Positions 44,759 through 61,961 of a DNA stretch of 64,000 bases are shown piece after piece. The notes beneath the pieces are model-generated. The model did no database searches, had not been told where the DNA came from, and was given only the letters and a program-made list of their open reading frames with translations. The stretch's first letter is position 1. Each line of letters opens with the position of its first letter. Source of the DNA: a phage. The DNA lies in sequence record PZ154895.1. One strand, given 5' to 3'. The position numbers and the translations under genes were made by a program.

Positions 44759-44766
44759 CATTCTTA

Positions 44767-44919: not shown

Positions 44920-44962
44920 CACAAAACTGTTTACATCTCTGTTCTTCCGTGGTACTATACAA
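44920..44962 (+). promoter_or_regulatory. T4-type early promoter (-35 GTTTAC 44929-44934, -10 TGGTACTATAC)
   Basis: consensus motifs; A/T-rich UP region. Confidence 0.7.
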
Positions 44963-45001
44963 CTATCAACTACTGATACAGAAAACAACTTGGAGAATGA
45001 A

Positions 45002-45265
45002 ATGGATAATTACGGCGAACTGTTCAACTTCTTTATGAAATGTGTTTCAGAAGATTTCGGTCGTACAGTGAATGATATTAAAGTTATCGGTCCTGACCAT
45101 CCGATGTTTGAAACTTACGCAGTAATGGGTAATGAAGACGGTCAGTGGTATACTGTAAAGGTTGTGATTAACATGTTCACAGCAGAAGGTTATGATAAAC
45201 TGTCTTCTAAAGTTTATCATGATAACGACGAAATCGCAGAAGAATATTTCAATAATATGAAATAA
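45002..45265 (+). CDS. hypothetical protein (e.8 position)
   Basis: 87 aa from MDNYGELF; the ORF-track N-terminal extension overlaps the early promoter so the start was moved to the ATG after the GGAG SD. Confidence 0.5.
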   Translation: MDNYGELFNFFMKCVSEDFGRTVNDIKVIGPDHPMFETYAVMGNEDGQWYTVKVVINMFTAEGYDKLSSKVYHDNDEIAEEYFNNMK

Positions 45266-45297
45266 GTTTACACAGGCTCATGATTGAGATATTATGA
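45260..45297 (+). promoter_or_regulatory. T4-type early promoter with overlapping inverted repeat
   Basis: -35 GTTTAC 45266-45271, -10 GATATTAT; inverted repeat caggctcat/atgagcctg spans the -10. Confidence 0.55.
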
Positions 45298-45320
45298 GCC
45301 TGTAATTTGAGGAGAACATT

Positions 45321-45656
45321 ATGAAACGTAACTTTAGTAAAGCTTTTTGTAATCGAAATTATTATCCCGAAGAGCTTTTTGAATCTAAGGAATTTAAAGA
45401 GTTTAACGAACGTTCTCAAAACATGCCTGTGCAGTGGGTATTGGATTATGCCAATCGTATCTTTGAAGGCGTGCGGGATATTTGTCCTGATGATGAAGCT
45501 CCTTATTTTAAAAAGGCTTGGGAACTTGCTAACCAAGCATATATCAATGCTTTAGAATTTTCTAAAGGCACTGACGATGATTTTACTTTATTGGCTATCA
45601 ATGATGCCGTTATCGAAGCCATTGACATCTTTATCGATGAGCTAGACGAAGAATAA
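45321..45656 (+). CDS. hypothetical protein (e.7 position)
   Basis: 111-aa ORF with GAGGAG SD after an early promoter. Confidence 0.5.
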   Translation: MKRNFSKAFCNRNYYPEELFESKEFKEFNERSQNMPVQWVLDYANRIFEGVRDICPDDEAPYFKKAWELANQAYINALEFSKGTDDDFTLLAINDAVIEAIDIFIDELDEE

Positions 45657-45690
45657 GTTTACAATCTATTAGAAACGTGATATTATCTAA
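45650..45690 (+). promoter_or_regulatory. T4-type early promoter
   Basis: -35 GTTTAC 45657-45662, -10 GATATTAT. Confidence 0.6.
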
Positions 45691-45713
45691 TTATATCAAC
45701 CTAAGGAAATACT

Positions 45714-46307
45714 ATGAACACACTGAAGAAAATTGTTGAGTTTATTCGCACTAAACTTGGTTCTGCTATGGCTAAAAATTTATCTGTTGAAGAACAGTAT
45801 ACTGCTGCAGCAGCAAAACTACTTGATAAAATTAAAGACCTAAAAACTGCTTCTGTTAAATCTATTAATGAAGAAAAACGTATTCGTGAACTTGTTGTTG
45901 AAAAGAATCGACAGGCCGAATCAAAAGAGCGTGAAATTCGTAAACTTCTTTCCGAAGGTCAAGATGTAACAATGCATGCTAAACTTGGTTTACTATATCG
46001 TCGAACAGCTGAGCAGTTGACTACTAAAGCTGACGGTTATGCTGAAATGCGAATTGAAATCGCCAAGAAAGTAGTTGAGTTAGATGATGCTCGCCAAGAA
46101 CTTGCAGTTAAATTGGAATATATCCGTGAAACTCGTGCAGCAAATGCCCTTGGAATTAGTACTGCCGATGATGTAGTTGAAATCGCAGCGCTGACTAAGG
46201 TTGATATTGAAGATACCCTTGCTCGAGTTGAAACCTTTAACGGTAATATTTCCGGGGTTGAAACTACCTCTGCCGATGTCCAGGAATATATTAATTCTCT
46301 GAAATAA
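45714..46307 (+). CDS. coiled-coil protein (e.6 position)
   Basis: 197 aa, almost entirely heptad-like charged helix; followed by a terminator hairpin. Confidence 0.55.
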
Positions 46308-46312
46308 TGATA

Positions 46313-46328
46313 AGGGGCTTCGGCCCCT
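46313..46328 (+). terminator. terminator-like hairpin after the coiled-coil gene
   Basis: hairpin aggggcttcggcccct; downstream T-run weak. Confidence 0.45.
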
Positions 46329-46348
46329 ATTACTTGGAGTAAATAGGA

Positions 46349-46957
46349 ATGAAAATGCAAAGTGATTTCAATTCAATGTTTGAAGAGTTCCAAAGACAGG
46401 TTGATGTTCCAGATCAATTATTAAATGCTCTTAAACGTATGGCAGAAGGACGTAATTACTATTGGGGGTCTTCATATGAAACTGATGAAAGTCTTTCTGG
46501 AAGATTTTCTAGAGGTAAAAAGTCTTTAATACGTCCTGGAATACTTATTAACAGTATTGAATCAATTCATTCATTGACGTGTGATTTTGATGTTGAATTT
46601 ACTGATTTCATTTCTCCTGAATGGACAGTATGTTATTTAAACGACGATTTTGATTATCTCGGTGTTTATAGTTTAAGTGACGCATGGTTTAAACGTAACT
46701 TACAAAAGTCAAATTTATTCTATATTGATACTACAGTAAAATTTCAGGGAAAGAAATATTTCTTTACTCTTATAGTTGATTCTGAAACGAAACATGAAAA
46801 TAAACGTATTCTTAGTAAAAGGAATATCTTGAATATTGTTGATGATCTTTTTGATAAATTCGTGGAAAATCCTAGTTTTGAAAGCGATTTATTACTAGAA
46901 AAATTTGTTAAGGAATGTAGAGAATATGTCAAAGCCATCACTATACCTTCCAAGTAA
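46349..46957 (+). CDS. hypothetical protein, C-terminal FVKECR motif (e.5 position)
   Basis: 202-aa ORF; C-terminus shares a motif with the three downstream membrane proteins. Confidence 0.5.
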   Translation: MKMQSDFNSMFEEFQRQVDVPDQLLNALKRMAEGRNYYWGSSYETDESLSGRFSRGKKSLIRPGILINSIESIHSLTCDFDVEFTDFISPEWTVCYLNDDFDYLGVYSLSDAWFKRNLQKSNLFYIDTTVKFQGKKYFFTLIVDSETKHENKRILSKRNILNIVDDLFDKFVENPSFESDLLLEKFVKECREYVKAITIPSK

Positions 46958-47318
46958 ACCTTTGAAGTATGAATTAAAGCGCCAGCTAATTTCTACTGAT
47001 GTATTAATAGGTCCTGTTATACTCATATCATTTGTAATTCTATTGATTATTGGAGGTGTTTTAGATGTTATGACTGATATTGATTCTGGCGAAATACTTG
47101 TGTTAATGCTAATTCTTCCATTAATAGTTCCACTTTTATTAGTACCTGTAAATTGGATAGGATATTGGTATCAAGGAAGACATTATCGTAAACGTGTACG
47201 TGATTGGAAAGCACAGTGTAAAAAGATTAAAAAGGAACACCAGCTTAAACTTGCTGAGTATGAATTTAATGAAATTATGAAATTTGTTAAGGAATCACGA
47301 TGCAAAAGCCAAAACTAA
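46905..47318 (+). CDS. small membrane protein, paralog family (e.4 position)
   Basis: 137 aa; two hydrophobic helices then basic tail ending FVKESRCK. Confidence 0.5.
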   Translation: MLRNVENMSKPSLYLPSKPLKYELKRQLISTDVLIGPVILISFVILLIIGGVLDVMTDIDSGEILVLMLILPLIVPLLLVPVNWIGYWYQGRHYRKRVRDWKAQCKKIKKEHQLKLAEYEFNEIMKFVKESRCKSQN

Positions 47319-47662
47319 ATAAAGTCAAATATTCGTTCCCCGAGGCACTATTAATTCTTGCTGTGTCAGTATTTGCAGCTCTTGCTGGTAGTCTTATTGG
47401 ATTGTTAATTGACTGTATTATTTTAAACATCGATGGTTCAGCAATTATAACAGAGGTTTGGAGTGAACTTCGTTTTACTATAGCGATTACATTATTTTCA
47501 TTCTTTGGTACCATGCTATATTTTCATTATGATAATTTTAAAATAAATTGGCAAAGAAAAAAGGATTACAAAATACAATTAAAGGAATATAATAACTACA
47601 TGTCTTATATTGAAAAAGAATCAATGGAAGAGTTTGTGAGTGATTGTAGGAAAATTAAATGA
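47300..47662 (+). CDS. small membrane protein, paralog family (e.3 position)
   Basis: 120 aa; two hydrophobic helices; C-terminus FVSDCRKIK. Confidence 0.5.
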   Translation: MQKPKLNKVKYSFPEALLILAVSVFAALAGSLIGLLIDCIILNIDGSAIITEVWSELRFTIAITLFSFFGTMLYFHYDNFKINWQRKKDYKIQLKEYNNYMSYIEKESMEEFVSDCRKIK

Positions 47663-48147
47663 TTTTAAAAACTCGTTGGTATGATTTAGATGATGGGGAC
47701 GATGGCATTTCAGTTGATAGAGTTGACTGGAATGGCTGTTCCGAAGATATGAAAAATTTGCTGATTAGGGAGTTTAGAATGGGATATCAACCAGTTAAGC
47801 CATCTACTGCAACAGATGATAAATTCGTGTGTATTCATAATGGTCGCGCTAAATTAACGAACGCTGATTGGTTCACAGATAAGATTATGATTCTGTGGTA
47901 TATTATTAGTTTTCCTGTGACATCATTTGTATTTTGCTTCTTTGGAGAAAGTCCAGTAGGCAGAACGGGAGATTGGATTCTTTTAATCATACTTGTTAAT
48001 ATTTTTACAGCAGCAGTACTATCAGGAATATGGTGCGTGTTCATTGAAATGCCATGGCGTTTACGTAGGCAGCAAAAGATTTTTGATGAAAAGAAATATA
48101 CTCAAAATTTAAATAATTTTATCACCGAATGCAGGAAATTAAAATGA
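47659..48147 (+). CDS. small membrane protein, paralog family (e.2 position)
   Basis: 162 aa; two hydrophobic helices; C-terminus FITECRKLK. Confidence 0.5.
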   Translation: MILKTRWYDLDDGDDGISVDRVDWNGCSEDMKNLLIREFRMGYQPVKPSTATDDKFVCIHNGRAKLTNADWFTDKIMILWYIISFPVTSFVFCFFGESPVGRTGDWILLIILVNIFTAAVLSGIWCVFIEMPWRLRRQQKIFDEKKYTQNLNNFITECRKLK

Positions 48148-48584
48148 AAACATTATCAGCTGGTATTATCTTTATGACAGAAGATAAAGATTTATTCATG
48201 GGACGGGTTACTGGTTCTCGTAAGCCTGGAATGATGGCACATCGCTGGGATATTCCAAAAGGCCGTGTAGAAAATTCTGATTTGAGCGCACTAGATGCAG
48301 CACGAAGAGAATGCTTAGAAGAGACCGGTTTTAGCAATTATAATCCAGACCTTCTAGAAGACCTAGGTGTATTTAAATATTCTAGTAATAAAGACTTACA
48401 GTTGTTTTATTATACGATTCCAGTAGAGCATGAGATGTTTAGAAATTGCCATTGTGAGTCTTATTTTGAAAATAAAGATGGCGTTATGATTCCAGAAATG
48501 GATGCTTTTGCTCTTATTCCTCGTACTCAGTGGCAATATGTGATGGGTCCTTCACTTTACCGAATAATGAACAGCCTCTTTTAA
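48129..48584 (+). CDS. nudE: Nudix hydrolase NudE (e.1)
   Basis: 151 aa; Nudix box GRVENSDLSALDAARRECLEETGF; immediately upstream of e. Confidence 0.8.
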   Translation: MQEIKMKTLSAGIIFMTEDKDLFMGRVTGSRKPGMMAHRWDIPKGRVENSDLSALDAARRECLEETGFSNYNPDLLEDLGVFKYSSNKDLQLFYYTIPVEHEMFRNCHCESYFENKDGVMIPEMDAFALIPRTQWQYVMGPSLYRIMNSLF

Positions 48585-48587
48585 TTT

Positions 48588-48608
48588 ATAAATACCTTCT
48601 ATAAATAC
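48588..48608 (+). promoter_or_regulatory. tandem late promoters (two TATAAATA copies) for e
   Basis: TATAAATA at 48588-48595 and 48601-48608 upstream of the lysozyme ATG. Confidence 0.65.
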
Positions 48609-48620
48609 TTAGGAGGTATT

Positions 48621-49109
48621 ATGAATATATTTGAAATGTTACGTATAGATGAAGGTCTTAGACTGACTTTATACAAAGACACTGAAGGCTTTTGGACGAT
48701 TGGCATAGGCCATTTAGTAACAAAGAACCCGTCTTTAGCCGTAGCTAAAGCTGAACTTGACAGAATGATCGGACGTAAATGCAACGGTACAATTACCCTT
48801 GATGAGGCTGAAAAGCTATTTAATGAAGACGTTGATAAAGCCGTTCGCGGAATCTTGGGTAATGCTAAACTTAAACCGGTATATGATTCTTTAGATGCAG
48901 TTCGTCGATGTGCGTTGGTCAATATGGTCTTCCAAATGGGCGTAGCAGGCGTCGCTGGTTTTACTAATTCTCTTCGTATGCTTCAACAGAAACGTTGGGA
49001 CGAAGCGGCAGTAAATCTAGCCCAATCTAAATGGTATCGTCAGACACCTAATCGCGCGAAACGCGTAATCTCAACATTTAAAACAGGAACTTGGAAAGCG
49101 TATATATGA
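48621..49109 (+). CDS. e: endolysin (T4-type lysozyme)
   Basis: 162 aa; [15 protein letters not shown]...[13 protein letters not shown] recognised as T4 lysozyme family, roughly 80 percent identical to T4 E as recalled. Confidence 0.95.
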
Positions 49110-49387
49110 AAACATATAGTGAATTTTTATCAGAATCTATTCTTAACGAAGCTACTGACACATTTGCAACTAAGTTAGGTGCAGCTTTGGTTGAAGCCGA
49201 AAGTCTATTAGCACGTATTTCTGAACTTGCTAGTAAGATAGATACTCGCAAATTTGAACGTACCAGCGATATCGTTAAGCTTGAAGCCTTGTTGCGTATG
49301 TGCGATAAACCAGAAGAAATCGCTAAGAACGGCTCGCTAATGAAACAACGTCTTGAAAAATATATTTCAGGCGCTTCAGAAAAATAG
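49106..49387 (+). CDS. internal-protein-like CTS-bearing protein (IPII-like size)
   Basis: 93 aa from [10 protein letters not shown]|SILNE|A; ATGA overlap with e stop; position between e and denV where T4 has ip genes. Confidence 0.55.
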
Positions 49388-49422
49388 TGTTTACTTCCTC
49401 CAAGGACTTTGATACTATACAT
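49383..49422 (+). promoter_or_regulatory. T4-type early promoter upstream of denV
   Basis: -35 GTTTAC 49389-49394, -10 TGATACTATAC. Confidence 0.7.
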
Positions 49423-49445
49423 TCATCAACTACTTGGAGGAAGTT

Positions 49446-49862
49446 ATGACTCGTATCAATTTAACACTTGTTTCTGAACTGACCGACCAACATCTTATGG
49501 CTGAGTATCGTGAATTGCCGCGTGTTTTTGGTATAGTTCGTAAACATGCGGCAAATGGTAAGCGGGTTAAAGATTTTAAAATATCTTCCGAGTTTATTTT
49601 AGGCTCTGGTCATGTTACGTTCTTTTACGATAAGTTAGAATTTTTGCGAAAGCGCCAATCAGACATTATAACGGAATGCTTAAAACGTGGGTTTAGTATA
49701 AAAGATACTGAAGTTCCTGACATCAGCGATATTCCAGCAGAATGGAAAAACGATTATAATCCATGCAAATCAGCTATTAAATTGAGTCAACAACGACTCG
49801 ATGAAAAAATTTTAATGAAGCCACACTGGTACAAGTATTACGGCAAAAATATTTACATTTAA
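49446..49862 (+). CDS. denV: endonuclease V, pyrimidine-dimer DNA glycosylase
   Basis: 138 aa from [29 protein letters not shown], recognised as T4 EndoV family; GGAGG SD. Confidence 0.92.
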
Positions 49863-49871
49863 AGGAAACAT

Positions 49872-50345
49872 ATGAAAACATATCAAGAATTTATCACTGA
49901 AGCAGCTATTAATTCTCAAATTATTGCTGAATCTTTTACTGATCTTTTGAAATTTAAAAAAGGACAGAAAATTACTGCTGTATTAGATGATGGTACAGAA
50001 GTTGAGATGGATGTACAAGGATATAATTATGCAGTAGATGGAAAACTGTATAATAAATCTCATGCTAAATTTGATTCATTTGACGACTTTGTTAATACAG
50101 TTGAAGATGAAAAAACTCGTAGATCCATTGCAACTGGCGATGCTAAGGTTCTTATGGCACACGGTCATGAACGTATTCGCGCTAAACAGAATAAAATGGG
50201 CGAAGATAATTTCGCATTAGTTGGTTATCAATCTGGTAAGCAAACTTATGGCTATCAGCGTACTGCTACCATGTATAATAAAAATGGTAAAATCGCTTTC
50301 GTGAATAGCAAAGGCTCTATTCAGTACGTCAAATCATTCAAATAA
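49872..50345 (+). CDS. internal-protein-like CTS-bearing protein
   Basis: 157 aa; N-terminus MKTYQEFITE|AAINSQIIAE|S closely matches the canonical T4 IP leader MKTYQEFIAE. Confidence 0.55.
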   Translation: MKTYQEFITEAAINSQIIAESFTDLLKFKKGQKITAVLDDGTEVEMDVQGYNYAVDGKLYNKSHAKFDSFDDFVNTVEDEKTRRSIATGDAKVLMAHGHERIRAKQNKMGEDNFALVGYQSGKQTYGYQRTATMYNKNGKIAFVNSKGSIQYVKSFK

Positions 50346-50498
50346 GCAAATAAGAAATATGGGAACAAGCTGGACCTCATGATTCTATGAGGGATTCCCG
50401 CCAACCTGTAATAAGGTCGAGCCCAAGTGCGGTAATGGGTAAATACAGAAATGGACAATTCATGCGCCATGGAATGGCCCAAATTTAGAGAGAATAAA

Positions 50499-51038
50499 AT
50501 GAGAACATTTTTAACTGGTCCTTATCTATCCCTGATGAATGCTTTTACACACCATTCTGATGCTAGAGTAGAAGAAATTTGTAAAAACGATTATATCCCA
50601 CCATTTGAAGACTTACTTAAGCAGTATTGCACACTTCGTTTAGATGGTGGCAGACAATCCGGTAAATCAACTGCTGTGACTAACTTTGCTGCTAATTGGC
50701 TGTATGATGGTGGAACAGTTATTGTTCTTTCTAATACTTCAGCTTACGCTAAAATTTCTGCGGGCCACATTAAAAAAGAATTTTCTCGTTATTCTGGCGA
50801 TGATATTCGATTCCGCTTATTTACCGATTCTGTCCGTAGTTTTATTGGCAATAAAGGAAGCAAGTTCAGAGGTTTATCGCTTTCTCGAATTTTGTATATA
50901 ATCGATGAGCCTGTTAAATCTCCTGATATGGATAAAATTTACGATATTCATATTGAAACTGTGCAACACTGCTGCAATAGTAAATGCTGTACTGGTGGTA
51001 TTACTCGTCCACAGTTTTTCGTAATCGGAATGCAATGA
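50499..51038 (+). CDS. small P-loop NTPase with C-terminal Cys cluster
   Basis: Walker A DGGRQSGKST, Walker B ILYIIDEP, C-terminal CCNSKCC; start chosen at MRTFL (alternative 50451). Confidence 0.55.
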   Translation: MRTFLTGPYLSLMNAFTHHSDARVEEICKNDYIPPFEDLLKQYCTLRLDGGRQSGKSTAVTNFAANWLYDGGTVIVLSNTSAYAKISAGHIKKEFSRYSGDDIRFRLFTDSVRSFIGNKGSKFRGLSLSRILYIIDEPVKSPDMDKIYDIHIETVQHCCNSKCCTGGITRPQFFVIGMQ

Positions 51039-51364
51039 TGACAGATACGCAACTTTTCGAATATCTTTATTTTTCGCCAAAAACTATTAAAAATAAATTG
51101 GTGAATCATTTTGAAATTTTGGCAAATAACAACGTCTTGAGCGAATTTTATCCTAAGCAATACAAATTACAAAAAGGCGTATTCAAAGGATGCAGAGTTT
51201 TGTGCACTGCTCCTAATGCAAAGTTAATGAATAAAATTCCATATTTTACCATGGAATTTATTGATGGACCTTTTAAAGGACTAATTACCCAAAGTTTAAT
51301 GGCATATGATTCTGAGCCATTTTTAATTAAAGAGCAATCTTGGATAAATTTATTTTCTAATTGA
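51035..51364 (+). CDS. hypothetical protein
   Basis: about 109 aa from MMTDTQLF, overlaps upstream stop. Confidence 0.45.
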   Translation: MMTDTQLFEYLYFSPKTIKNKLVNHFEILANNNVLSEFYPKQYKLQKGVFKGCRVLCTAPNAKLMNKIPYFTMEFIDGPFKGLITQSLMAYDSEPFLIKEQSWINLFSN

Positions 51365-51370
51365 GGTTAT

Positions 51371-51733
51371 ATGAAAGCATATCAAATTCTTGAAGGCACA
51401 CATAAAGGTACTATTTATTTTGAAGACGGTATTCAAGCACGAATTATTGTCTCTAAAACTTTTAAAGAGGACTCTTTTGTAGACCCGGAAATTTTCTACG
51501 GTTTGCATGCCCGTGAAATTGAAATTGAAACACAACCTACAGTTAAAATTGAAGGTGGTCAACACTTGAACGTTAACGTTCTGCGTCGCGAAACTCTGGA
51601 AGATGCAGTTAAGCATCCGGAAAAATATCCGCAGCTGACCATCCGTGTATCAGGTTATGCAGTTCGCTTTAACTCTCTGACTCCGGAACAGCAGCGCGAC
51701 GTTATTGCTCGTACCTTTACTGAGAGTTTGTAA
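51371..51733 (+). CDS. GrcA/YfiD-like autonomous glycyl radical cofactor
   Basis: 120 aa; C-terminal half [55 protein letters not shown] carries the glycyl-radical RVSGY motif, near-identical to enterobacterial GrcA as recalled. Confidence 0.85.
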
Positions 51734-51954
51734 TGGCAAAGATAATTATTGAAGGTTCTAAAGATGTGCTAAATGCTTTCGCCGAATGGTTTAGTAATTC
51801 AGGCGAGCAGCAATTTAATGAAGCGTGGACCATGGGTGATATTGATGGAATTTATCCTACGACAGAAATTTCTGTTCAAGGATATGGCATTCATGAACCT
51901 ATTCGTTTAGTTGAATATGATTTATGTACTGGTGAGGAAGTAAAATATGATTGA
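51733..51954 (+). CDS. hypothetical small protein
   Basis: 73-aa ORF, ATGG overlap with upstream stop. Confidence 0.4.
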   Translation: MAKIIIEGSKDVLNAFAEWFSNSGEQQFNEAWTMGDIDGIYPTTEISVQGYGIHEPIRLVEYDLCTGEEVKYD

Positions 51955-52213
51955 AGATATTAAGGGTTATAAGCCACATACTGAAGAGAAAATCGGTAAA
52001 GTGAATGCTATCAAAGACGCTGAAGTTCGTTTAGGACTTATCTTTGATGCTTTATATGATGAATTCTGGGAAGCACTGGATAATTGTGAAGACTGTGAAT
52101 TCGCAAAGAATTATGCTGAAAGCCTCGATCAGTTAACTATTGCTAAAACTAAACTCAAAGAAGTCAGTATGTGGGCTTGTCGCGCAGTGTTTCAACCAGA
52201 GGAAAAATATTAA
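51947..52213 (+). CDS. hypothetical small acidic helical protein
   Basis: 88-aa ORF; vs.3-vs.8 region of T4. Confidence 0.4.
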
Positions 52214-52491: not shown

Positions 52492-52525
52492 CTGTTTACT
52501 TTTCCTCTTGACTGTGGTATAATTT
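52488..52525 (+). promoter_or_regulatory. T4-type early promoter upstream of regB
   Basis: -35 GTTTAC 52494-52499, -10 TGGTATAAT. Confidence 0.7.
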
Positions 52526-52550
52526 TTCTATCAGTTAAGAGGAGAATAAC

Positions 52551-53012: not shown

Positions 53013-53019
53013 GGTAAGC

Positions 53020-54559: not shown

Positions 54560-54741
54560 GTCTAAGCATTAGTCAGAAAAGTAGATTATTTGAGCTTATT
54601 CATGAGCTTTTGGATGAGCATACAGAAGCAAACACCTTTTATGATGAATACGGCCCGCTATCTCCCGAACAGCAGGAAGAATTTGCTGATCGGTTTGATA
54701 AGAAAGAAAATGAATTAATAGCTTATGTGAATACGCTTTAA
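54535..54741 (+). CDS. hypothetical small acidic protein
   Basis: 68-aa ORF directly upstream of tk. Confidence 0.35.
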   Translation: MFKGAMVMSLSISQKSRLFELIHELLDEHTEANTFYDEYGPLSPEQQEEFADRFDKKENELIAYVNTL

Positions 54742-54750
54742 GAAGGTGAT

Positions 54751-55332
54751 ATGGCGAGTTTAATTTTTACTTATGCAGCAATGAATGCTGGAAAATCTGC
54801 TTCTCTTTTGACTGCTGCACATAATTATAAAGAACGTGGAATGAGTGTATTAGTTCTTAAGCCTGCTATTGATACTCGCGATTCTGTCTGTGAAGTCGTT
54901 TCTCGCATTGGAATTAAGCAGGAAGCGAATATTATTACGGATGATATGGATATTTTTGAGTTCTATAAATGGGCTGAAGCACAAAAAGATATTCATTGTG
55001 TATTTGTAGATGAAGCCCAGTTTTTAAAAACTGAACAGGTGCATCAATTAAGCCGAATTGTTGATACATATAATGTTCCTGTTATGGCTTATGGACTAAG
55101 GACTGATTTCGCTGGAAAATTATTTGAAGGTTCTAAAGAACTTTTGGCGATTGCAGATAAACTTATTGAACTAAAAGCAGTTTGTCATTGTGGTAAAAAA
55201 GCTATTATGACAGCTCGATTAATGGAAGATGGAACACCAGTTAAAGAGGGTAATCAAATCTGTATTGGTGATGAAATTTATGTTTCTTTGTGTAGAAAAC
55301 ATTGGAATGAATTAACTAAAAAGCTCGGTTAG
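54751..55332 (+). CDS. tk: thymidine kinase
   Basis: 193 aa; P-loop AMNAGKSAS and C-terminal zinc-ribbon Cys pairs; size as T4 Tk. Confidence 0.9.
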   Translation: MASLIFTYAAMNAGKSASLLTAAHNYKERGMSVLVLKPAIDTRDSVCEVVSRIGIKQEANIITDDMDIFEFYKWAEAQKDIHCVFVDEAQFLKTEQVHQLSRIVDTYNVPVMAYGLRTDFAGKLFEGSKELLAIADKLIELKAVCHCGKKAIMTARLMEDGTPVKEGNQICIGDEIYVSLCRKHWNELTKKLG

Positions 55333-55341
55333 TGCAAAAGT

Positions 55342-55349
55342 TATAAATA
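55342..55349 (+). promoter_or_regulatory. late promoter TATAAATA upstream of the rI region
   Basis: exact motif about 25 nt upstream of the 55375 ORF. Confidence 0.55.
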
Positions 55350-55374
55350 GGTTTATCTAACTAAAGGGGTATAT

Positions 55375-55587
55375 ATGCTACAATTAACTGAAAAGCAACT
55401 TCGCAATCTTACTGTTCTTCAATTAGATGAAATTCGTAGGGAAGTTGGAAATATCATTTCAGCTTTGCGTCGAGAAGTATCACTCAACCAATCTCCGGCA
55501 GACTATACTAGATTGCGAAATTTTGAAAAATACCTTGATAAAGTTAAGGCCGTGCATCGGCATAAAGTAAATACAGGACAAAAATGA
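55375..55587 (+). CDS. hypothetical small protein (rI-adjacent)
   Basis: 70-aa ORF after a TATAAATA late promoter. Confidence 0.45.
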
Positions 55588-55599
55588 TAGGAGGCCTTT

Positions 55600-55893
55600 A
55601 TGGCCTTAAAAGCAACGGCATTATTTGCCATGCTAGGATTAGCGTTTGCTTTATCTCCACCAATTGAAGCGAATGTCGATCCTCATTTTGATAAATTTAT
55701 GGAATCTGGTATTAGACATGTTTATATGCTTTTTGAAAATAAAAGCGTAGAATCATCTGAACAGTTCTATAGTTTTATGCGAACGACCTATAAAAATGAC
55801 CCGTGCTCTTCCGATTTTGAATGTATAGAGCGAGGCGCGGAGATGGCACAATCATACGCTAGAATTATGAACATTAAATTGGAGACTGAATGA
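55600..55893 (+). CDS. rI: RI lysis-inhibition regulator (periplasmic antiholin)
   Basis: 97 aa with N-terminal signal-anchor MALKATALFAMLGLAFALSPPIEA; size and position next to tk as in T4. Confidence 0.7.
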   Translation: MALKATALFAMLGLAFALSPPIEANVDPHFDKFMESGIRHVYMLFENKSVESSEQFYSFMRTTYKNDPCSSDFECIERGAEMAQSYARIMNIKLETE

Positions 55894-56276
55894 AATTCAG
55901 CGACTTTTCACAAAGCGGAAAACCTTCAAAGGCAGATGAATACTTAGGTTTATTAATGGCTGCGCAAGCTTATTTTCATTCTGCGCATTTTGAAACTAAA
56001 AGTTATGCTAGACACAAAGCATACGATTTTATTTTCTCTGAGTTGCCAGATTTGATTGATAAATTTGGTGAGCAATATTTGGGGTATTCTGGTAGAAAAT
56101 ACACGCCGTCAATTCCGGATGCCAGTAAACTTCCTACCGACACAATTAAAATGATTGATCGTATACTAGACCAATCTAACAGCATTTACAAAGAAATGCC
56201 TCCAGCCATTCAAAGCACGATAGATGATATTACTGGAATGTTTTACCAGAGTAAGTATCTTCTTTCCCTCGAATAA
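55890..56276 (+). CDS. hypothetical protein (rI-adjacent)
   Basis: 128-aa ORF overlapping rI stop; followed by a terminator. Confidence 0.5.
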
Positions 56277-56280
56277 CATT

Positions 56281-56304
56281 AGTCTCCTTCGGGAGACTTT
56301 TTTC
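56281..56304 (+). terminator. intrinsic terminator after the rI-adjacent ORF
   Basis: hairpin agtctcc-ttcg-ggagact followed by TTTTTT. Confidence 0.75.
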
Positions 56305-56307
56305 ATT

Positions 56308-56347
56308 TTACCGGTTTACTTTCCATTTGAGCTGTGATACTATACAA
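56308..56347 (+). promoter_or_regulatory. T4-type early promoter
   Basis: -35 GTTTAC 56314-56319, -10 TGATACTATAC, immediately after a terminator hairpin. Confidence 0.7.
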
Positions 56348-56371
56348 CCATCAGATAAAGAGGAGAACATC

Positions 56372-56560
56372 ATGAAAATTGAAGCACTTAATCAAGAAGG
56401 AAATATCTACGTCATCATTAATGGTGATTTTTTCGTCGACATGGATGAAGTTACCAGTGAAGAACTTGAAGAACTTCTTAAGAAACGTTATGATATGTGT
56501 GATGAAGCTGCAACTCATATGGCGTGTGCAATATTCTCTCTTTCATATGTGGTGGAATAA
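56372..56560 (+). CDS. hypothetical small acidic protein
   Basis: 62 aa from MKIEALNQ with GAGGAG SD after an early promoter. Confidence 0.4.
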
Positions 56561-56763
56561 TGATTAGTATAGAACAAGCAGATAAAATTAAAGAATTGGT
56601 AGCTTTAATTCGCAAAGCAGACGAGGAACTTAGTGACTTTGCTTGGTTTTCGGCAGGCATTGCAAATAAAGGCGCTGAAGAACTTGAAGCTAAAGTTGAT
56701 AATGCTGTAGAAGCTTTAGATATGTTTCTTGATGAAATTATCGATCATAATACGAGAGTTTAA
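56560..56763 (+). CDS. hypothetical small protein
   Basis: 67 aa from [16 protein letters not shown] coupling. Confidence 0.4.
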   Translation: MISIEQADKIKELVALIRKADEELSDFAWFSAGIANKGAEELEAKVDNAVEALDMFLDEIIDHNTRV

Positions 56764-56765
56764 GT

Positions 56766-56960
56766 ATGCTAACACGTGAACAGTTTGAAAAAATCATTAA
56801 ATTAGCACGTGATATTGAAATAGATTCATACCAATTGGCAGTTGAGCATTGTGAAGGATATTCATACGATGGTATAGAAGCAGCTAAAAAGGATTTGGAT
56901 AAATCCAAAGCTAAGTTAGTTCAATATCTTGAAATGATTAGGTGGAATAATGAAAACTGA
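56766..56960 (+). CDS. hypothetical small protein
   Basis: 64-aa ORF. Confidence 0.4.
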   Translation: MLTREQFEKIIKLARDIEIDSYQLAVEHCEGYSYDGIEAAKKDLDKSKAKLVQYLEMIRWNNEN

Positions 56961-57123
56961 AAAGCAGATGTTTTTAATGAAGCTAATTGAAGAATATGCT
57001 AATGCAGTTTCTGACTATGAGTGTTCTTCTCGGGAAAGAGGTACAGCTTTCGCAAAGGAAGAAATGAAAATCATGGTTGATGCTCACACAAAGCTTCAGA
57101 ATTTTATTGAAAACGTCATTTAA
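56950..57123 (+). CDS. hypothetical small protein
   Basis: 57-aa ORF overlapping upstream stop; below the ORF-track cutoff. Confidence 0.35.
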   Translation: MKTEKQMFLMKLIEEYANAVSDYECSSRERGTAFAKEEMKIMVDAHTKLQNFIENVI

Positions 57124-57158
57124 TGGTTTACAAGTTGGCAAGGTTATGGTATAGTAAT
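57119..57158 (+). promoter_or_regulatory. T4-type early promoter
   Basis: -35 GTTTAC 57125-57130, -10 TGGTATAGT. Confidence 0.65.
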
Positions 57159-57290
57159 CTTGTCAACTGCCAAGGAGAAGAGAATGAAAGTTTTGTTTGT
57201 TGTGTATGTGATGATTCAATATAATTACCCGATGTTTACTTATAATCTGGTGAACAACATTATTGATATTATTCAAAGGAGTATGTAATT

Positions 57291-57848
57291 GTGGGTGAGT
57301 CGAAGAGAATCAATATGAAACGATTAGTATTAGAAGTTAGTCCGCTTTTTGGTGAATTGGCTATAGAAAAAGTAAATAACATGTATCGTTTGACACAAGA
57401 AGACGATATGCTGTATTTTACGCCTAGTGAAATCATTCATTTAACCCAAATTGAATATCCTTATACTGATAAAATAGTAAGCATCAATGATGAGCACAAA
57501 ATTCATTTTTATTCTTCATGCCCAGGATTTAATATTAACAGTGAGTCAATGTGTTTATCAGTTATCCATTGGGATAGTTTTATAGCTAAGATTAAATATT
57601 TTTATTATTCTAATGAAAGAAAACATAGTTTAAAATGGCTTAAAAATTGCAATGCTATTATTACTAACGCTTGCAATCAGAATGATGAAACTCTTTTAAA
57701 TGTATCAAAATGTTATGAAGAGGGAGATGTCTTAACTATTCGTCAAATTGACGATTTTCGATCACATATTGTTACATTTACCAAAGACGAAGCTATTGCG
57801 CTAAAGACTTATCTTGATTCTGTCATTCCAACTATGATTTCAAAGTGA
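57291..57848 (+). CDS. hypothetical protein, paralog A (GTG start)
   Basis: 185 aa; AGGAG SD 9 nt upstream of GTG; C-terminus LTIRQ...FTKDEAIALKTYLDSVIPTM homologous to the next ORF. Confidence 0.5.
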   Translation: MGESKRINMKRLVLEVSPLFGELAIEKVNNMYRLTQEDDMLYFTPSEIIHLTQIEYPYTDKIVSINDEHKIHFYSSCPGFNINSESMCLSVIHWDSFIAKIKYFYYSNERKHSLKWLKNCNAIITNACNQNDETLLNVSKCYEEGDVLTIRQIDDFRSHIVTFTKDEAIALKTYLDSVIPTMISK

Positions 57849-57854
57849 GGAAAT

Positions 57855-58376
57855 ATGTTTATTTCAAGTGAAAGCGGTTTAATTCGTGTTGAATTTAAAA
57901 ATGACATCTTCCTTATTCAAGGAGATGATATTATTAAAATGAGTTATGACGAAATCAAGAAAATTTGTCATGCTCTTGAAAGCCATGGAAAAGTAAATGC
58001 TACTATCGATATAGGTGATTTATGGGTGACACTTTATGAAGTATCCGAAGGATTTAACATTGAAGATGAAAATAACATCTTAGCTATTGATAAAAGAAGT
58101 GATTTGTTTGATGTGTTAAAAGTTTATGAACAGTCAAACGGTGGAAGAAAAGCTGCATTGATTTATCAAAAACCACATTCATGTGGAACTGCTTCAATCA
58201 TTTCAAATATTGAAGATGAAACTGATACTTATATGTGTGTTTTAAAGGCTGGTGGTGACCGTCATCCGGATTTTATTTCTATTCGTCAAAACAATGGAGA
58301 AATTTCATTATCAAAATCAGAAGCTGAAGCTATGATTAAGTATTTAACAACTGTTACACCTTCAATGAAAGGATAA
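57855..58376 (+). CDS. hypothetical protein, paralog B
   Basis: 173 aa; C-terminus ISIRQ...LSKSEAEAMIKYLTTVTPSM homologous to the previous ORF. Confidence 0.5.
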   Translation: MFISSESGLIRVEFKNDIFLIQGDDIIKMSYDEIKKICHALESHGKVNATIDIGDLWVTLYEVSEGFNIEDENNILAIDKRSDLFDVLKVYEQSNGGRKAALIYQKPHSCGTASIISNIEDETDTYMCVLKAGGDRHPDFISIRQNNGEISLSKSEAEAMIKYLTTVTPSMKG

Positions 58377-58378
58377 TT

Positions 58379-58840
58379 ATGATTATTAATGAAAGCTCTT
58401 GGCACTATAAATTATTCAAAATGTTTAATGATGAATGGAAACGACCTAAGACACTGTGCGCGTATTTTTGGTCTATTGTTATTCCTACATTTTTCGTTTC
58501 TTTTTTCGGATGTACTATACTCGCAGGTCTAACTATCATCTGTGCAGAAATCATACAGAAATGGCTTATTTTTGGTAGTTTATGGACTCTTATTCCATCA
58601 GCATTTATACTTGCCATTTTGCTTGTTTTACTTATTATTGGTTCATTTGTTATTCCTGCACAACTGCGTGAAAAATATAAAGATTATAAATGGAAAAAGG
58701 ATTATGCTTTACATGTAGAAAATATTGATAGGGCGTATAAAGGTTTACCTCCTATTCAACCTAAGAAATCTATTATCGTCGAATTTTTAAAAGCGCGTAA
58801 AGCTAAAGTATGTCCTGTTATTGAATATAAGGCTGAATGA
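58379..58840 (+). CDS. membrane protein (2-3 predicted TM helices)
   Basis: 153 aa with long hydrophobic segments; start 2 nt after previous stop. Confidence 0.5.
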   Translation: MIINESSWHYKLFKMFNDEWKRPKTLCAYFWSIVIPTFFVSFFGCTILAGLTIICAEIIQKWLIFGSLWTLIPSAFILAILLVLLIIGSFVIPAQLREKYKDYKWKKDYALHVENIDRAYKGLPPIQPKKSIIVEFLKARKAKVCPVIEYKAE

Positions 58841-59850
58841 TGAAAACAGTAATGAAAAGCTATTTTGGTAGTCATCTTTATGGAACTTCTACTCCAGAAT
58901 CTGATGTAGATTTTAAAGAAATCTTTGTTCCTCCTGCTCGCGATATTCTTATCGGAAATGTTAAAGAGCATATGAGTAAAAACACTAACAACACATCATC
59001 TAAAAACACTAAAGATGATATTGACCATGAACTATACAGTCTTAAGTATTTCTTTAAATTAGCAGCAGATGGTGAAACTGTAGCATTGGATATGCTCCAC
59101 ACTCCACCTGAGTTAGTGGTTAAATCTGATTTGCCTGATGTATGGAAGTTTATTCAAGACAATCGTTCTCGTTTTTATACGACTAACATGAAATCCTATT
59201 TAGGATATGTTCGCAAGCAAGCTTCTAAATATGGTGTTAAGGGTTCTCGTTTGGCCGCATTGCGTGATGTATTGAAAGTAGTTAATCAAATCCCTGATCA
59301 GTGGGTTGATTACCAAGAAGACGGTTCCATTAAGCAGCGTCGCACTAAAGTTGAAGATATTAAGCATCGTCTTCCAGAAAACGAGTTCTGTGAATGGGTG
59401 TTCCACAATCATGAGAAAACAGGCCCACAAACGTTCTATACTGTGTTGGGTCGTAAATATCAGACAACTCTTTCTCTTATTGAGCTTAAGCAGTCTTTGA
59501 ATAAACTTGATGCCGAATACGGTGAACGCGCTCGTAAGGCTGAAGCTAATGAGGGCATTGACTGGAAAGCTTTGAGTCATGCTTGTCGTGGTGGACTCCA
59601 ACTATTGGAAATTTACAAAACTGGTGACTTGGTTTATCCACTTAAAGATGCTCCATTTATTCTCGACGTGAAGTTGGGTAAACATCCATTTAAAACTGTT
59701 CAAGAGTTTTTGGAAGATGTGGTCGATCAAGTAGAAGCAGCATCCATTGAAGCTTCTAAGAACGGTATGCAGCAAAAAGTAGACATGGGTTTCTGGGATG
59801 ACTTCCTTGAGAGGGTTTATCTTGAAAACCACCGAAGTTATTATAAATGA
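58837..59850 (+). CDS. Pol-beta-superfamily nucleotidyltransferase-like protein
   Basis: 337 aa; N-terminal GSHLYGTSTPESDVDF fits the GS-x(9-13)-D-x-D NTase motif, with a candidate third acidic residue in VALDML. Confidence 0.55.
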   Translation: MMKTVMKSYFGSHLYGTSTPESDVDFKEIFVPPARDILIGNVKEHMSKNTNNTSSKNTKDDIDHELYSLKYFFKLAADGETVALDMLHTPPELVVKSDLPDVWKFIQDNRSRFYTTNMKSYLGYVRKQASKYGVKGSRLAALRDVLKVVNQIPDQWVDYQEDGSIKQRRTKVEDIKHRLPENEFCEWVFHNHEKTGPQTFYTVLGRKYQTTLSLIELKQSLNKLDAEYGERARKAEANEGIDWKALSHACRGGLQLLEIYKTGDLVYPLKDAPFILDVKLGKHPFKTVQEFLEDVVDQVEAASIEASKNGMQQKVDMGFWDDFLERVYLENHRSYYK

Positions 59851-59853
59851 TAG

Positions 59854-59879
59854 GGAGCCTTCGGGCTCCCTTTTTTTTT
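59854..59879 (+). terminator. intrinsic terminator after the nucleotidyltransferase gene
   Basis: hairpin gggagcc-ttcg-ggctccc followed by nine T. Confidence 0.8.
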
Positions 59880-59894
59880 GTTTAAAATGACGTC

Positions 59895-59936
59895 ACAAAG
59901 TTGTTTACTTCTATCGCAAAGCATATTATAATATAT
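59895..59936 (+). promoter_or_regulatory. T4-type early promoter
   Basis: -35 GTTTAC 59903-59908, -10 TATTATAAT, after a terminator hairpin. Confidence 0.65.
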
Positions 59937-59978
59937 GTGTAGTTAATTAATTGCTCTTTAAAAATTGAGGAGAATACA

Positions 59979-60269
59979 ATGCATATTTTAATGCAATGCC
60001 TTGGCAACAAAATTAATGATTTTAATCATAAGCGTGTTAATGATTACATTAAAGACAAACTTGAGATTAAAGACATACTTTTTAGAGGACTTACAATAGA
60101 GGAAGTGCTATCTTATAAGTTTGAAGTTAATAGGAGAATCAAATTTAAAAGAATAACTTCCTTTAGCAGTGAGTCTCATATAGCTGAAACGTTTGCAGCA
60201 GAACGCTATATGACTAATGCTTTAGTAGTGTTAAAAATGCAAACGTTTTCGACTATTCGACTGCTATGA
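59979..60269 (+). CDS. hypothetical protein
   Basis: 96-aa ORF with GAGGAG SD after an early promoter. Confidence 0.45.
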   Translation: MHILMQCLGNKINDFNHKRVNDYIKDKLEIKDILFRGLTIEEVLSYKFEVNRRIKFKRITSFSSESHIAETFAAERYMTNALVVLKMQTFSTIRLL

Positions 60270-60463
60270 TTGACATTTTAGAAAATTTAATCGCAATTGA
60301 AGAATCTGGCCAAACTGACGATGATAAGCTTAACAAGCTTTATGATAATCTTTGTATGGTAGATTATGAAAGAGAGTTTTTACTGCCAACTAATTCTGAG
60401 TTAATAGTTAAAAACATATATTTTGATAGCAAAAAGAACATGCATATAGTAGAAATGGAATAA
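60266..60463 (+). CDS. hypothetical small acidic protein
   Basis: 65-aa ORF overlapping upstream stop. Confidence 0.4.
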   Translation: MIDILENLIAIEESGQTDDDKLNKLYDNLCMVDYEREFLLPTNSELIVKNIYFDSKKNMHIVEME

Positions 60464-60495
60464 ATCGACACAAAGGGGGCTATGGTACTATACAA
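60460..60495 (+). promoter_or_regulatory. early-type promoter (-10 TGGTACTATAC, weak -35)
   Basis: -10 and leader identical to the 44950 promoter; -35 not consensus. Confidence 0.5.
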
Positions 60496-60528
60496 CTATC
60501 AACTACTGATACAGATTTGGAGAATAAA

Positions 60529-61497
60529 ATGAAAACTGTAACTATCAATAAGGGTATCTACTTTGGTAAAGAAATCTCTGGAACTTTTGAGCTCTTAGGC
60601 GAATGGTTCCCAGATAATGCTCCGGTAGATGCACAAGGAGATGGTAAAGTTTTTGTTGAAATTGACGGTAAACGTCGCGGTGTTTGGGTTTACAAATCAG
60701 ATATTTCATATGATGGTGTAAAAGTTGAAGAAGTTAAAGAATCGTATGAAGATATGAAAACCCGCATTAATAAAAGATTTAATGTTATGGGAATGATGAC
60801 GAACGGTATTATTAATGGAAATATTCGTTCATTAATTATCTCTGGCGCAGCAGGTATTGGTAAAACGTATTCTTTAGATAAAGCTTTAAATAAAGCAAAT
60901 GATATTGGATACATTGAATATAAAAGCATTAATGGTAAAATCTCTGGTATTGGTCTTTATGAGCAGCTTTGGAATAATCGTGAAGAGAATTCTGTCCTTT
61001 TGATTGATGATGTGGATGTTTTCTCTGATATGGACATTCTTAATCTTCTAAAAGCTGCTCTGGACACTGGAGAGACCCGTAAAGTCTGCTGGAGCACTGC
61101 GTCTTCTTACTTAGAAGAAAAAGGCATTGACCGTGAGTTTGAATTTAAAGGAACGATTGTTTTTATCACAAACGTTGACATTGACCGCGAATTAGACCGT
61201 GGTACTAAACTTGCTCCACATTTACAAGCATTAGTGTCCCGCTCAGTTTATTTGGATTTGGGTGTTCACACTAATGAAGAAATTATGGTCAGGGTTGAAG
61301 ATGTTATTCTTTCAACTGACATGATGCAAAAGCGTGGTCTTTCTGATGAAGAAACTTATAAAGCATTATCATGGATGAAAGTTAATGTTAATCGTTTACG
61401 CAATGTTTCACTGCGTACTGCTCTTTATCTTGCTGACTTTATTATGACCGACAAAAACGGTTGGGAAGAAATTGCTGAGGTTACTCTTCTGAAATAA
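60529..61497 (+). CDS. AAA+/P-loop ATPase
   Basis: 322 aa from MKTVTINKG; Walker A GAAGIGKT, Walker B VLLIDDVD; ORF-track start is an upstream TTG. Confidence 0.65.
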   Translation: MKTVTINKGIYFGKEISGTFELLGEWFPDNAPVDAQGDGKVFVEIDGKRRGVWVYKSDISYDGVKVEEVKESYEDMKTRINKRFNVMGMMTNGIINGNIRSLIISGAAGIGKTYSLDKALNKANDIGYIEYKSINGKISGIGLYEQLWNNREENSVLLIDDVDVFSDMDILNLLKAALDTGETRKVCWSTASSYLEEKGIDREFEFKGTIVFITNVDIDRELDRGTKLAPHLQALVSRSVYLDLGVHTNEEIMVRVEDVILSTDMMQKRGLSDEETYKALSWMKVNVNRLRNVSLRTALYLADFIMTDKNGWEEIAEVTLLK

Positions 61498-61598
61498 TTC
61501 ATAAGAGGACTTCTATGACAAAAAGGCAGTTCAGAAATAGATTATATGGACTGCCATTAAAAAGATGACTAGAATTAAACTGGTGAATGGAGGTAGTG

Positions 61599-61901
61599 AT
61601 GTTATACTCAAAGGCTCGTGAAATTTACGAAACTAAAATTAAAGAAGCAGTATTTCAGTTCGCAACGACAATGCGATGGACAAATGACTGGGAGTATTCA
61701 AAAAATCATAAGAAGCCCATGGTGACAAGAAAGGCTCATATGTTAGTGTTAATAGACCGTGAGCAGATTAAAGCCCGAGAAGCCCTCCAGAATCATAAAA
61801 AGGCTGCCTTTGAATGGTTTATGGATAACACTGCTCCTGAGACTAAGAAAGCAGTGAGCGCATGGTTCAGTGGAAAAAATTGTGAAAGAAGTTTCTTTTA
61901 G
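61599..61901 (+). CDS. hypothetical protein
   Basis: 100 aa from MLYSKAREIYE with GGAGG SD. Confidence 0.45.
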   Translation: MLYSKAREIYETKIKEAVFQFATTMRWTNDWEYSKNHKKPMVTRKAHMLVLIDREQIKAREALQNHKKAAFEWFMDNTAPETKKAVSAWFSGKNCERSFF

Positions 61902-61936
61902 TGGTTTACAAGACTGTTCCTCTGTGGTACTATACA
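61898..61936 (+). promoter_or_regulatory. T4-type early promoter
   Basis: -35 GTTTAC 61904-61909, -10 TGGTACTATAC. Confidence 0.7.
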
Positions 61937-61961
61937 ACTATCAACTACGGAGGAACAGAAA

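Follow-up and report, generated by a model that had tools for sequence, protein, structure and literature searches.

A stretch of 64,000 nucleotides of the phage sequence PZ154895.1 (the window) carries the same block of sequence upstream from three genes, the orthologues of T4 e.8, nrdC.10 and nrdC.8 (sites A, B and C). The block is the core, the start site and the first transcribed bases of T4-type early promoters (Pe). It is a real and already well described element: the T4 early promoters, their extended consensus, the RegB sites in their Shine-Dalgarno sequences and the shuffling of promoter-early stem-loop (PeSL) modules have all been published. The three copies most probably represent three such promoters, each from its core into the first transcribed bases, and belong to modules that recombination has exchanged or duplicated.

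Searches of the window recovered the 32-mer of the original prediction at exactly two places, 44951-44982 and 60484-60515, on the + strand in both cases, and its first 23 nt exactly three times, the third copy being located at 61926-61948. No match was obtained in shuffled sequence for either of them (0 in 100 shuffles for the 32-mer), and no fourth copy of the 23-mer was found in the window when up to three mismatches were allowed. The identity between sites A and B was found to be 33 nt long (44950-44982 and 60483-60515), one base further 5' than first noted, and 24 nt, TGGTACTATACAACTATCAACTAC, are common to the three sites, with the site C copy at 61925-61948; the extra base brings the whole TGn extended -10 motif inside the identity. 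Past the block, sites A and B are separated by an indel of 6-7 nt and are then alike again from the Shine-Dalgarno to the ATG (TTGGAGAAT[G/A]AAATG). The upstream flanks and the downstream coding sequences of the copies showed no relation to one another. The early-promoter family is the largest direct-repeat family (D1) in the window.

The window belongs to a Tequatrovirus (T4-like), with 95-97% identity to Tequatrovirus genomes, and the same block is located upstream from e.8, nrdC.10 and nrdC.8 in T4 and in phage HY01; the downstream genes are as first described and are orthologues of these three. The reading of the block as promoter plus leader sequence was borne out as well. In the T4 record L13089 the depositors annotated block positions 3-8, TACTAT, as minus_10_signal and marked a suitably spaced -35 before it, and in Yersinia phage fPS-90 a paralogous copy of the block, with a terminator before it, is annotated as 'predicted early promoter'. 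With the -10 at block positions 3-8, the transcript should take in approximately 18 nt of the block, so that the identity would run past the -10 into the leader. All copies in the window and in T4 lie on the early-transcribed strand, and sites A, B and C, which are orthologous to T4 Pe, are followed by a Shine-Dalgarno and a start codon within about 25-45 nt.

At site A, the UP-like A/T-rich tract AAAACTTTTAAAAAAAAATTTTTCACAAAACT (44897-44928, + strand, as are all features given below) lies upstream of a -35 GTTTAC (44929-44934), whose orthologous T4 sequence is annotated as minus_35_signal in L13089; the sigma-70 hexamer TTTACA (44930-44935) has a 17-nt spacer. The block (44950-44982) comprises the TGn (44950-44952), the -10 TACTAT (44953-44958), the discriminator ACAACT, the predicted +1 A (44965) and the first 18 transcribed nt. 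A Shine-Dalgarno/RegB-type site, GGAGAATGAAA (44992-45002), leads into the 87 aa e.8 orthologue (45002-45265). At site B, the block (60483-60515) includes the TGn (60483-60485), the -10 TACTAT (60486-60491), the predicted +1 A (60498) and the leader, with no -35 left, and a Shine-Dalgarno (60519-60529) leads into the 322 aa nrdC.10 orthologue (60529-61497), whose P-loop/AAA Pfam matches are weak and under the curated cut-off. At site C, the -35 GTTTAC (61904-61909) begins 3 nt past the stop codon of the nrdC.9 orthologue, and the UP region is still coding sequence. The 24-nt block (61925-61948) holds the TGn, the -10 TACTAT (61928-61933), the predicted +1 A (61940) and the first 9 transcribed nt, and is followed by the Shine-Dalgarno GGAGGAACAGA (61949-61959) and the 175 aa nrdC.8 orthologue (61962-62489).

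The extended -10 of the three sites is therefore TGG TACTAT (TGn, then TAnnnT). The -35, GTTTAC(A/T), is present 17-18 nt before the -10 at sites A (44929) and C (61904) but is deleted at site B; the orthologous nrdC.10 site keeps it in HY01 and T4. The UP element (A/T-rich, approximately -40 to -60) is readily seen at site A (AAAAAAAAATTTTTCACAAAAC), less marked at site C and missing from site B, and an A/T tract of the site A type is also found upstream of T4 P_e.8 and of P_nrdC.10 in HY01 and T4. A strict pattern, GTTTAC-N10-14-TGGTANNATA, gave no matches, its spacing having been set too short; early promoters were found by other scans. The +1 A was placed by the usual 7-nt distance after the -10, and its position is a prediction because our literature search found no published map of T4 transcription starts.

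T4 early promoters have been described as UP/-35/TGn/-10 promoters with additional consensus regions (review PMC2988021). The consensus of 31 of them, TGTGGTAcTATA.AaCTATCAAcTA, itself reaches past the -10 to about +8, and block positions 1-22 match it. The idea that the block is simply the family-wide early consensus thus holds for these 22 nt and fails for the final 10 nt (CTGATACAGA), which define a sub-family of about 5-6 of the 31 T4 early promoters that also takes in motA and imm.1. In T4 the exact 32-mer occurs upstream of motA and e.8, and copies matching at 31 of 32 positions occur upstream of imm.1 and at 167086. A second promoter sub-family was observed in the window as a 35-nt UP/-35 repeat at 40736 and 41066.

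Comparison with relatives showed that these modules are replaced at otherwise conserved genes. In two close relatives (L021 and L022), the first 300 nt of nrdC.10 match the window at 97-99% identity, and all likeness ends about 10-13 nt upstream of the nrdC.10 ATG, which places the breakpoint at the Shine-Dalgarno. The interval between nrdC.11 and nrdC.10 has no insert in T4, a ModA-like gene in HY01 and in the window, two small ORFs in L021 and a different promoter in L022. In L021 and L027, other inserted ORFs stand under the control of the T4-type module, and other lineages (L038 and L056) have their own tandem identical copies of promoter plus leader. The replacements at nrdC.10 are clean cases in which near-identical phages supply one gene with interchangeable promoter/leader modules.

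The original prediction had offered a shared RNA-level regulatory element as one cause of the identity, and this was largely not borne out. The minimum free energies of the leaders were -0.6 to -4 kcal/mol, and the three leaders and the 18-nt core folded no better than shuffled sequences (z = 0.01 to 1.13), which led us to reject a structured leader RNA. An Rfam scan of positions 40000-64000 at gathering thresholds returned tRNAs only, with no match to the leaders. Inside the block, the T4 nrdC.10 copy lacks 3 nt and carries an A>G substitution, and the relatives described above have unrelated leaders. The sole RNA-level element known here is the putative RegB/S1 site in the Shine-Dalgarno, which lies outside the block, 3-10 nt downstream. 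RegB/S1 targets in early-gene Shine-Dalgarno sequences have the consensus GGAGRAYARAA (PMC1702504, PMC3014915), the optimal T4 site being GGAGAAUAAAA (Durand et al. 2006, PMC1702504). Site B (GGAGAATAAAA) matches the 11-mer and this optimal site exactly, site A has one mismatch and site C is a poor match; moderate RegB cleavage at the GGAG of T4 nrdC.8 was found experimentally (PMC1702504). The regB gene is present in the syntenic region of HY01.

It appears unlikely to us that the 18 bases of the block that are transcribed, AUCAACUACUGAUACAGA, are under selection as a cis-element instead of having been passively carried along by module duplication. A selected element of this kind could act in promoter escape, as an initial transcribed sequence, in the response to Alt or the shut-off of early promoters, or in the binding of a protein or a small RNA, and the genes that carry it (motA, imm.1, e.8 and nrdC.10) would form a co-regulated immediate-early subset. 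The 32-mer is present in 507 phage records, in 493 of them at 99% identity or more; in the e.8 promoters of eight orthologues, the block varied at one site of 33 and the adjacent spacer at 5 of 15, a difference that could reflect selection on the leader and not recombination. Moreover, the sub-family includes motA, a key regulator, and the extra consensus regions, Alt specificity and early-promoter shut-off are unexplained according to a review (PMC2988021). Against this stand, besides the lack of structure and of an Rfam family, the lesion inside the element in T4 nrdC.10, the entirely different leaders in front of nearly identical nrdC.10 coding starts, the different repeated leaders of other T4-like lineages, and site C, which has only the first 9 transcribed bases in common.

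The other proposal of the original prediction, a recent duplication that spread the cassette to new genes within this phage, would account for copies exact over 33 and 24 nt, but the presence of orthologous copies in T4 and HY01, at the very same genes, refutes it. The occurrence in 507 records, the unrelated flanks and coding sequences and the absence of any private gain (the only private change at the copies in PZ154895.1 is the deletion at site B) make it highly improbable.

The identity goes far beyond what the consensus predicts. The mean pairwise identity of the T4 early promoters in the 32-nt frame is 15.4/32, only 6 of 465 pairs reach at least 28/32, and the probability of an exact 32-nt match calculated from the family position weights is approximately 1e-11 (1e-6 for the last 10 nt alone); hence the copies share descent or exchange sequence. 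In some paralogous copies, such as those at T4 167086 and imm.1, the identity reaches into the first four codons, which promoter function cannot explain. Convergent selection towards the optimal early-promoter consensus alone, which fits the first 22 nt, was rejected on the position-weight calculation, with the scarcity of near-identical pairs and the identity within codons also against it, and we give it next to no credence.

Site B differs from its orthologues by a 61-bp deletion, which alignment with HY01 placed at 60480-60481. The nrdC.10 promoter has thereby lost its UP element, its -35 and most of its spacer, and the terminator before it has lost its 3' half and T-run. The deletion was absent from the 25 best-matching phage records, all of which align in two pieces, with 378-385 nt against 321 nt here; no clear repeat that would explain the junction was found in a search for microhomology at its ends. 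The region upstream holds an intrinsic terminator after the nrdC.11 orthologue (59852-59871, supported by the HY01 alignment), directly followed by an early promoter in a PeSL-type arrangement. This promoter, GTTTAC-N18-TATAAT (59903-59932, found by the promoter scan), precedes the ModA-like gene (59979-60463), which is absent from T4 and encodes 161 aa in HY01; in the window, the loss of 1 nt from a run of A near 60233 splits it into parts of 96 and 65 aa. In the window and in HY01 this gene is an insert relative to T4, with terminator and promoter modules on its flanks.

Since its -35 and UP element are gone, site B may have little or no promoter activity. With only the TGn/-10 and the leader remaining and the downstream terminator lost, most expression of the nrdC.10 orthologue probably comes from transcripts that start at the 59903 promoter and read through. 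For annotation, these results place three early transcription units in PZ154895.1 and draw attention to 59979-60481, where the ModA-like gene is frameshifted and a promoter/terminator module is damaged.

Under the recombining-module explanation, host sigma-70 RNA polymerase would recognise the UP element, the GTTTAC -35, the TGn and the TACTAT -10 immediately after infection and would most likely start at the A seven bases past the -10 (44965, 60498 and 61940). The product would be a short, G-poor, unstructured leader, AUCAACUAC..., leading into a GGAG Shine-Dalgarno that is presumably also the target of the phage RegB/S1 endoribonuclease, whose cleavage would shut off the early mRNAs. Promoter, leader and Shine-Dalgarno would form an exchangeable module, as in the PeSL model published for T4-type phages. 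Homologous recombination would duplicate the modules and swap them between genes, probably acting as the homogenising force, and selection for a very strong promoter would then keep them alike. The site B copy would be a truncated module of this kind.

The closest known counterparts are the T4 Pe of e.8 (msp1), nrdC.10, nrdC.8, motA and imm.1, which the sites resemble in sequence (32/32 at T4 e.8 and motA), gene position and strand, and in a common layout of UP element, GTTTAC -35, 17/18-nt spacer, TGn, TACTAT, short leader and GGAG Shine-Dalgarno. The differences are the loss of terminator, UP element, -35 and spacer at site B and, on the side of T4, the altered block of its own nrdC.10 copy. 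With the RegB/S1 target sites the window shares the exact 11-mer at 60519-60529 and the single-mismatch copy at 44992-45002; here the site stands 3' of the repeated block, and cleavage in PZ154895.1 is predicted from sequence only. Conserved sequences based on early promoters also flank the internal-protein (IP) loci of T-even phages (Repoila et al. 1994, as cited in PMC2839356 and PMC4122927); going by these citing papers, they are likewise repeats built on T4 early promoters and tied to gene shuffling, of another sub-family and at another locus.

The published PeSL cassettes differ from the present sites in several respects. No stem-loop lies directly upstream of site A (a terminator at 44768-44787, about 140 nt away, is the nearest) or of site C, so that these two are plain early promoters and not full PeSLs; site B is a degraded half-module whose upstream terminator, half deleted here, is intact in HY01 and T4. 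A 75-nt query for the chimeric junction of a natural B x C recombinant gave no full-length match in 50,697 phage records, the best coverage beginning inside the spacer. The likenesses are the repeated modules of terminator, AT-rich tract, early promoter and Shine-Dalgarno in hyperplastic regions, and their position next to gene insertions or replacements between close relatives. Sites A and C fit the consensus TTTACW-N17-TAYWAT of the PeSLs of the T4/PST pair (Comeau et al. 2014, PMC4122927). In PeSL mini-circles the crossovers fall in the stretch from the -10 to the Shine-Dalgarno/ATG (Arbiol et al. 2010, PMC2839356), the same span that the block covers here, and the swapped leaders with their breakpoint at the Shine-Dalgarno appear to fit this published model of PeSL shuffling.

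Exact searches of the window identified the 32-mer GGTACTATACAACTATCAACTACTGATACAGA in two copies, at 44951-44982 and 60484-60515, both on the + strand, and a third copy of its first 23 nt at 61926-61948; these copies are located upstream of the e.8, nrdC.10 and nrdC.8 orthologues (sites A, B and C, respectively). The 32-mer was absent from 100 of 100 dinucleotide-preserving shuffles. The original prediction of a 32-nt repeat at two sites with a 23-nt third copy is confirmed. Exact identity between sites A and B covers 33 nt, one base further 5' than first noted, and the 24-mer TGGTACTATACAACTATCAACTAC is common to all three sites. On the 3' side of the block, sites A and B differ by a short indel, after which their similarity resumes at TTGGAGAAT and continues up to the ATG. 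A search of the window yielded no additional copies at up to three mismatches. Among the direct repeats in the window, those of this promoter family form the largest group; other families consist of UP/-35 segments, Shine-Dalgarno/ATG segments and terminators.

Between 44000 and 64000 the window shows 95-97% identity to Tequatrovirus genomes, e.g. Escherichia phage HY01, and its + strand is the early-transcribed one (the minus strand in the T4 record). Synteny and sequence identified the three downstream genes, all on the + strand, as orthologues of T4 e.8 (45002-45265), nrdC.10 (60529-61497; Pfam similarity to P-loop/AAA is weak) and nrdC.8 (61962-62489). Elsewhere in the window, a cluster of nine tRNA genes (Gln, Leu, Gly, Ser, Thr, Met, Tyr, Asn, Arg) at 42126-43528 is interrupted by a GIY-YIG-like ORF (42370-43020); compared with the eight tRNAs of T4, Pro and Ile are missing, and Met, Tyr and Asn are present. 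Two terminator hairpins (44204-44239 and 44763-44798), 89% identical, lie on either side of a 157-aa ORF (44285-44758), an arrangement that resembles a gene cassette delimited by duplicated terminators.

The window was scanned for promoters with the pattern GTTTAC-N16-18-TAnnnT. Approximately eleven + strand matches were found at 40-62 kb, sites A and C among them, each followed by a Shine-Dalgarno sequence and an ATG. At sites A and C the block begins at the TGn of the extended -10, with TACTAT at block positions 3-8. In the T4 record L13089 (msp1 = e.8), exactly these bases carry the annotation of a -10 signal, and the annotated -35 is spaced as expected; in Yersinia phage fPS-90, a paralogous copy is labelled a predicted early promoter and has a terminator 5' of it. 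Because the usual distance is 7 nt, we infer that transcription starts at an A in each copy (44965, 60498 and 61940), which would make the transcribed part about 18 nt long in the 32-mer and 9 nt long in the 23-mer. With the -10 annotated in L13089 and the predicted start inside the block, the reading of the repeat as promoter plus leader was upheld. A second promoter sub-family was also observed, with the 35-nt UP/-35 segment AGATTTAAAATAATTTCACAAAGTTGTTTACA at 40736-40770, 41066-41100 and 59875-59909; the first two copies are 97% identical and 330 bp apart.

Recent cassette duplication, one of the two explanations proposed for the repeat, was not supported: the block precedes the e.8, nrdC.10 and nrdC.8 genes of T4 and HY01 as well, the T4 nrdC.10 copy being distinguished by an A>G substitution and by the loss of 3 nt (ACTACT to ACT), and megablast of the 32-mer matched 507 phage records at 1050 places, with 1-4 near-exact copies per genome. 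The finding is real, but not new: these are members of the known T4 early-promoter family, in orthologous positions.

Thirty-one early promoters were extracted from the whole assembled T4 genome and anchored on the -10. Their consensus, TGTGGTAcTATA.AaCTATCAAcTA, extends through the start site as far as about +8, so that the first ~22 nt of the block fall within it. In agreement, a review describes T4 early promoters as UP/-35/TGn/-10 promoters that have further consensus regions (PMC2988021). The last 10 nt of the block (CTGATACAGA) are the mark of a sub-family. The exact 32-mer occurs upstream of T4 motA and e.8, 31 of its 32 nt are found in the imm.1 upstream region and at T4 position 167086, and the copy with a deletion upstream of T4 nrdC.10 also belongs to this sub-family. 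In the block frame, the mean pairwise identity of the 31 promoters was 15.4/32, and only 6 of the 465 pairs reached at least 28/32. Given the family position weights, two promoters drawn independently would be identical with a probability of ~1e-11. Convergence on the consensus is therefore insufficient, and the copies are related by descent or by sequence exchange. In some paralogues, identity continues through the Shine-Dalgarno sequence into the first four codons.

The T4 promoter at 167086 (NC_000866, ~167086-166996; loci L007/L008 of our comparison) is located downstream of denB and drives an unannotated 8-codon ORF, MKIAEIEL*, which overlaps the ndd.6 start and whose first four codons are those of the imm.1 start. 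Together, promoter and ORF resemble what would remain of a promoter duplicated along with the 5' end of a gene.

Site B has been altered locally. Relative to HY01, a 61-bp deletion between 60480 and 60481 has taken away the terminator 3' half and the T-run, and has left the nrdC.10 promoter without its UP element, its -35 and most of its spacer. Nothing but TGn/-10 and leader remains of the module at site B, which is therefore truncated. None of the best 25 matching phage records shares this deletion, all aligning in two pieces. Judging from the sequence, the nrdC.10 orthologue is probably transcribed mainly via read-through from the promoter at 59903. The ModA-like gene (59979-60463, + strand), which T4 lacks and which encodes 161 aa in HY01, is here broken into parts of 96 and 65 aa, one A being lost from an A6 run near 60233. 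This frameshift could be real decay (pseudogenisation) or a homopolymer sequencing error.

Ten e.8 and 37 nrdC.10 loci were gathered from viral contigs. An early promoter was found at every nrdC.10 orthologue, with promoter and leader varying by lineage. Over the first 300 nt of nrdC.10 coding sequence, loci L021 and L022 match the window at 97-99% identity; upstream, identity is at background from ~10-13 nt 5' of the ATG, where GGAGAATAAA has its 5' edge. Thus at least three unrelated promoter/leader modules serve one gene in near-identical phages. T4-type modules occur at other inserted ORFs (L021 at 696, L027 at 1167), and L038 (1141, 1434) and L056 (1167, 1431) have their own tandem identical or near-identical promoter and leader copies. 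The nrdC.11-nrdC.10 interval is empty in T4 and holds the ModA-like gene in HY01 and this phage, with terminator and promoter modules on both flanks.

In locus coordinates, the stretches concerned are L021:696-1500 and L022:1435-1500; L021 contains two additional small ORFs, both with an early promoter of their own. L038 and L056 are more distant T4-like contigs, in which the tandem copies, including the Shine-Dalgarno sequence, are ~265-293 bp apart and surround small ORFs just upstream of nrdC.10; their leaders are lineage-specific.

A shared RNA-level element had been suggested as the other explanation, with structure prediction of the leader as a check. The three leaders and the 18-nt core folded no better than shuffles (-0.6 to -4 kcal/mol; z 0.01 to 1.13), and an Rfam scan of 40000-64000 returned tRNAs only. 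The sole known RNA-level signal is in the Shine-Dalgarno sequences, a short way 3' of the block: these are targets of the phage endoribonuclease RegB with S1. The optimal T4 RegB/S1 site is GGAGAAUAAAA and the general consensus GGAGRAYARAA (PMC1702504, PMC3014915). Site B has the exact 11-mer of the optimal site (60519-60529), site A has one mismatch to the general consensus, and the GGAG of T4 nrdC.8, the site C counterpart, is reported to be cleaved moderately by RegB (PMC1702504). A leader predicted to be free of structure would fit the requirement of RegB for single-stranded RNA.

The transcribed part of the block could also be a functional element in its own right, as suggested by the eight orthologous e.8 promoters, in which 1/33 sites vary in the block versus 5/15 in the adjacent spacer. 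Purifying selection on start region and leader could account for this low variation, as could homogenisation. We therefore give this explanation a small probability; the deletion that T4 carries inside the transcribed part and the free replacement of the leader in close relatives argue against it.

The early-promoter modules can be compared with the promoter-early stem-loop cassettes (PeSLs) of T4-type phages. Crossovers of sequenced PeSL mini-circles lie between the -10 and the Shine-Dalgarno/ATG (PMC2839356), and PeSLs of the T4/PST pair have the consensus TTTACW-N17-TAYWAT (PMC4122927). Exchange of such modules would explain why the copies have remained identical. Limiting this recombination reading, no natural B x C recombinant junction was found in 50,697 phage records. 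Unlike PeSLs, sites A and C have no stem-loop directly upstream, and so are plain early promoters, not full PeSLs. The pattern of module replacement is that described as PeSL-mediated modular shuffling, and the block is repeated as part of this known class of recombining regulatory modules.
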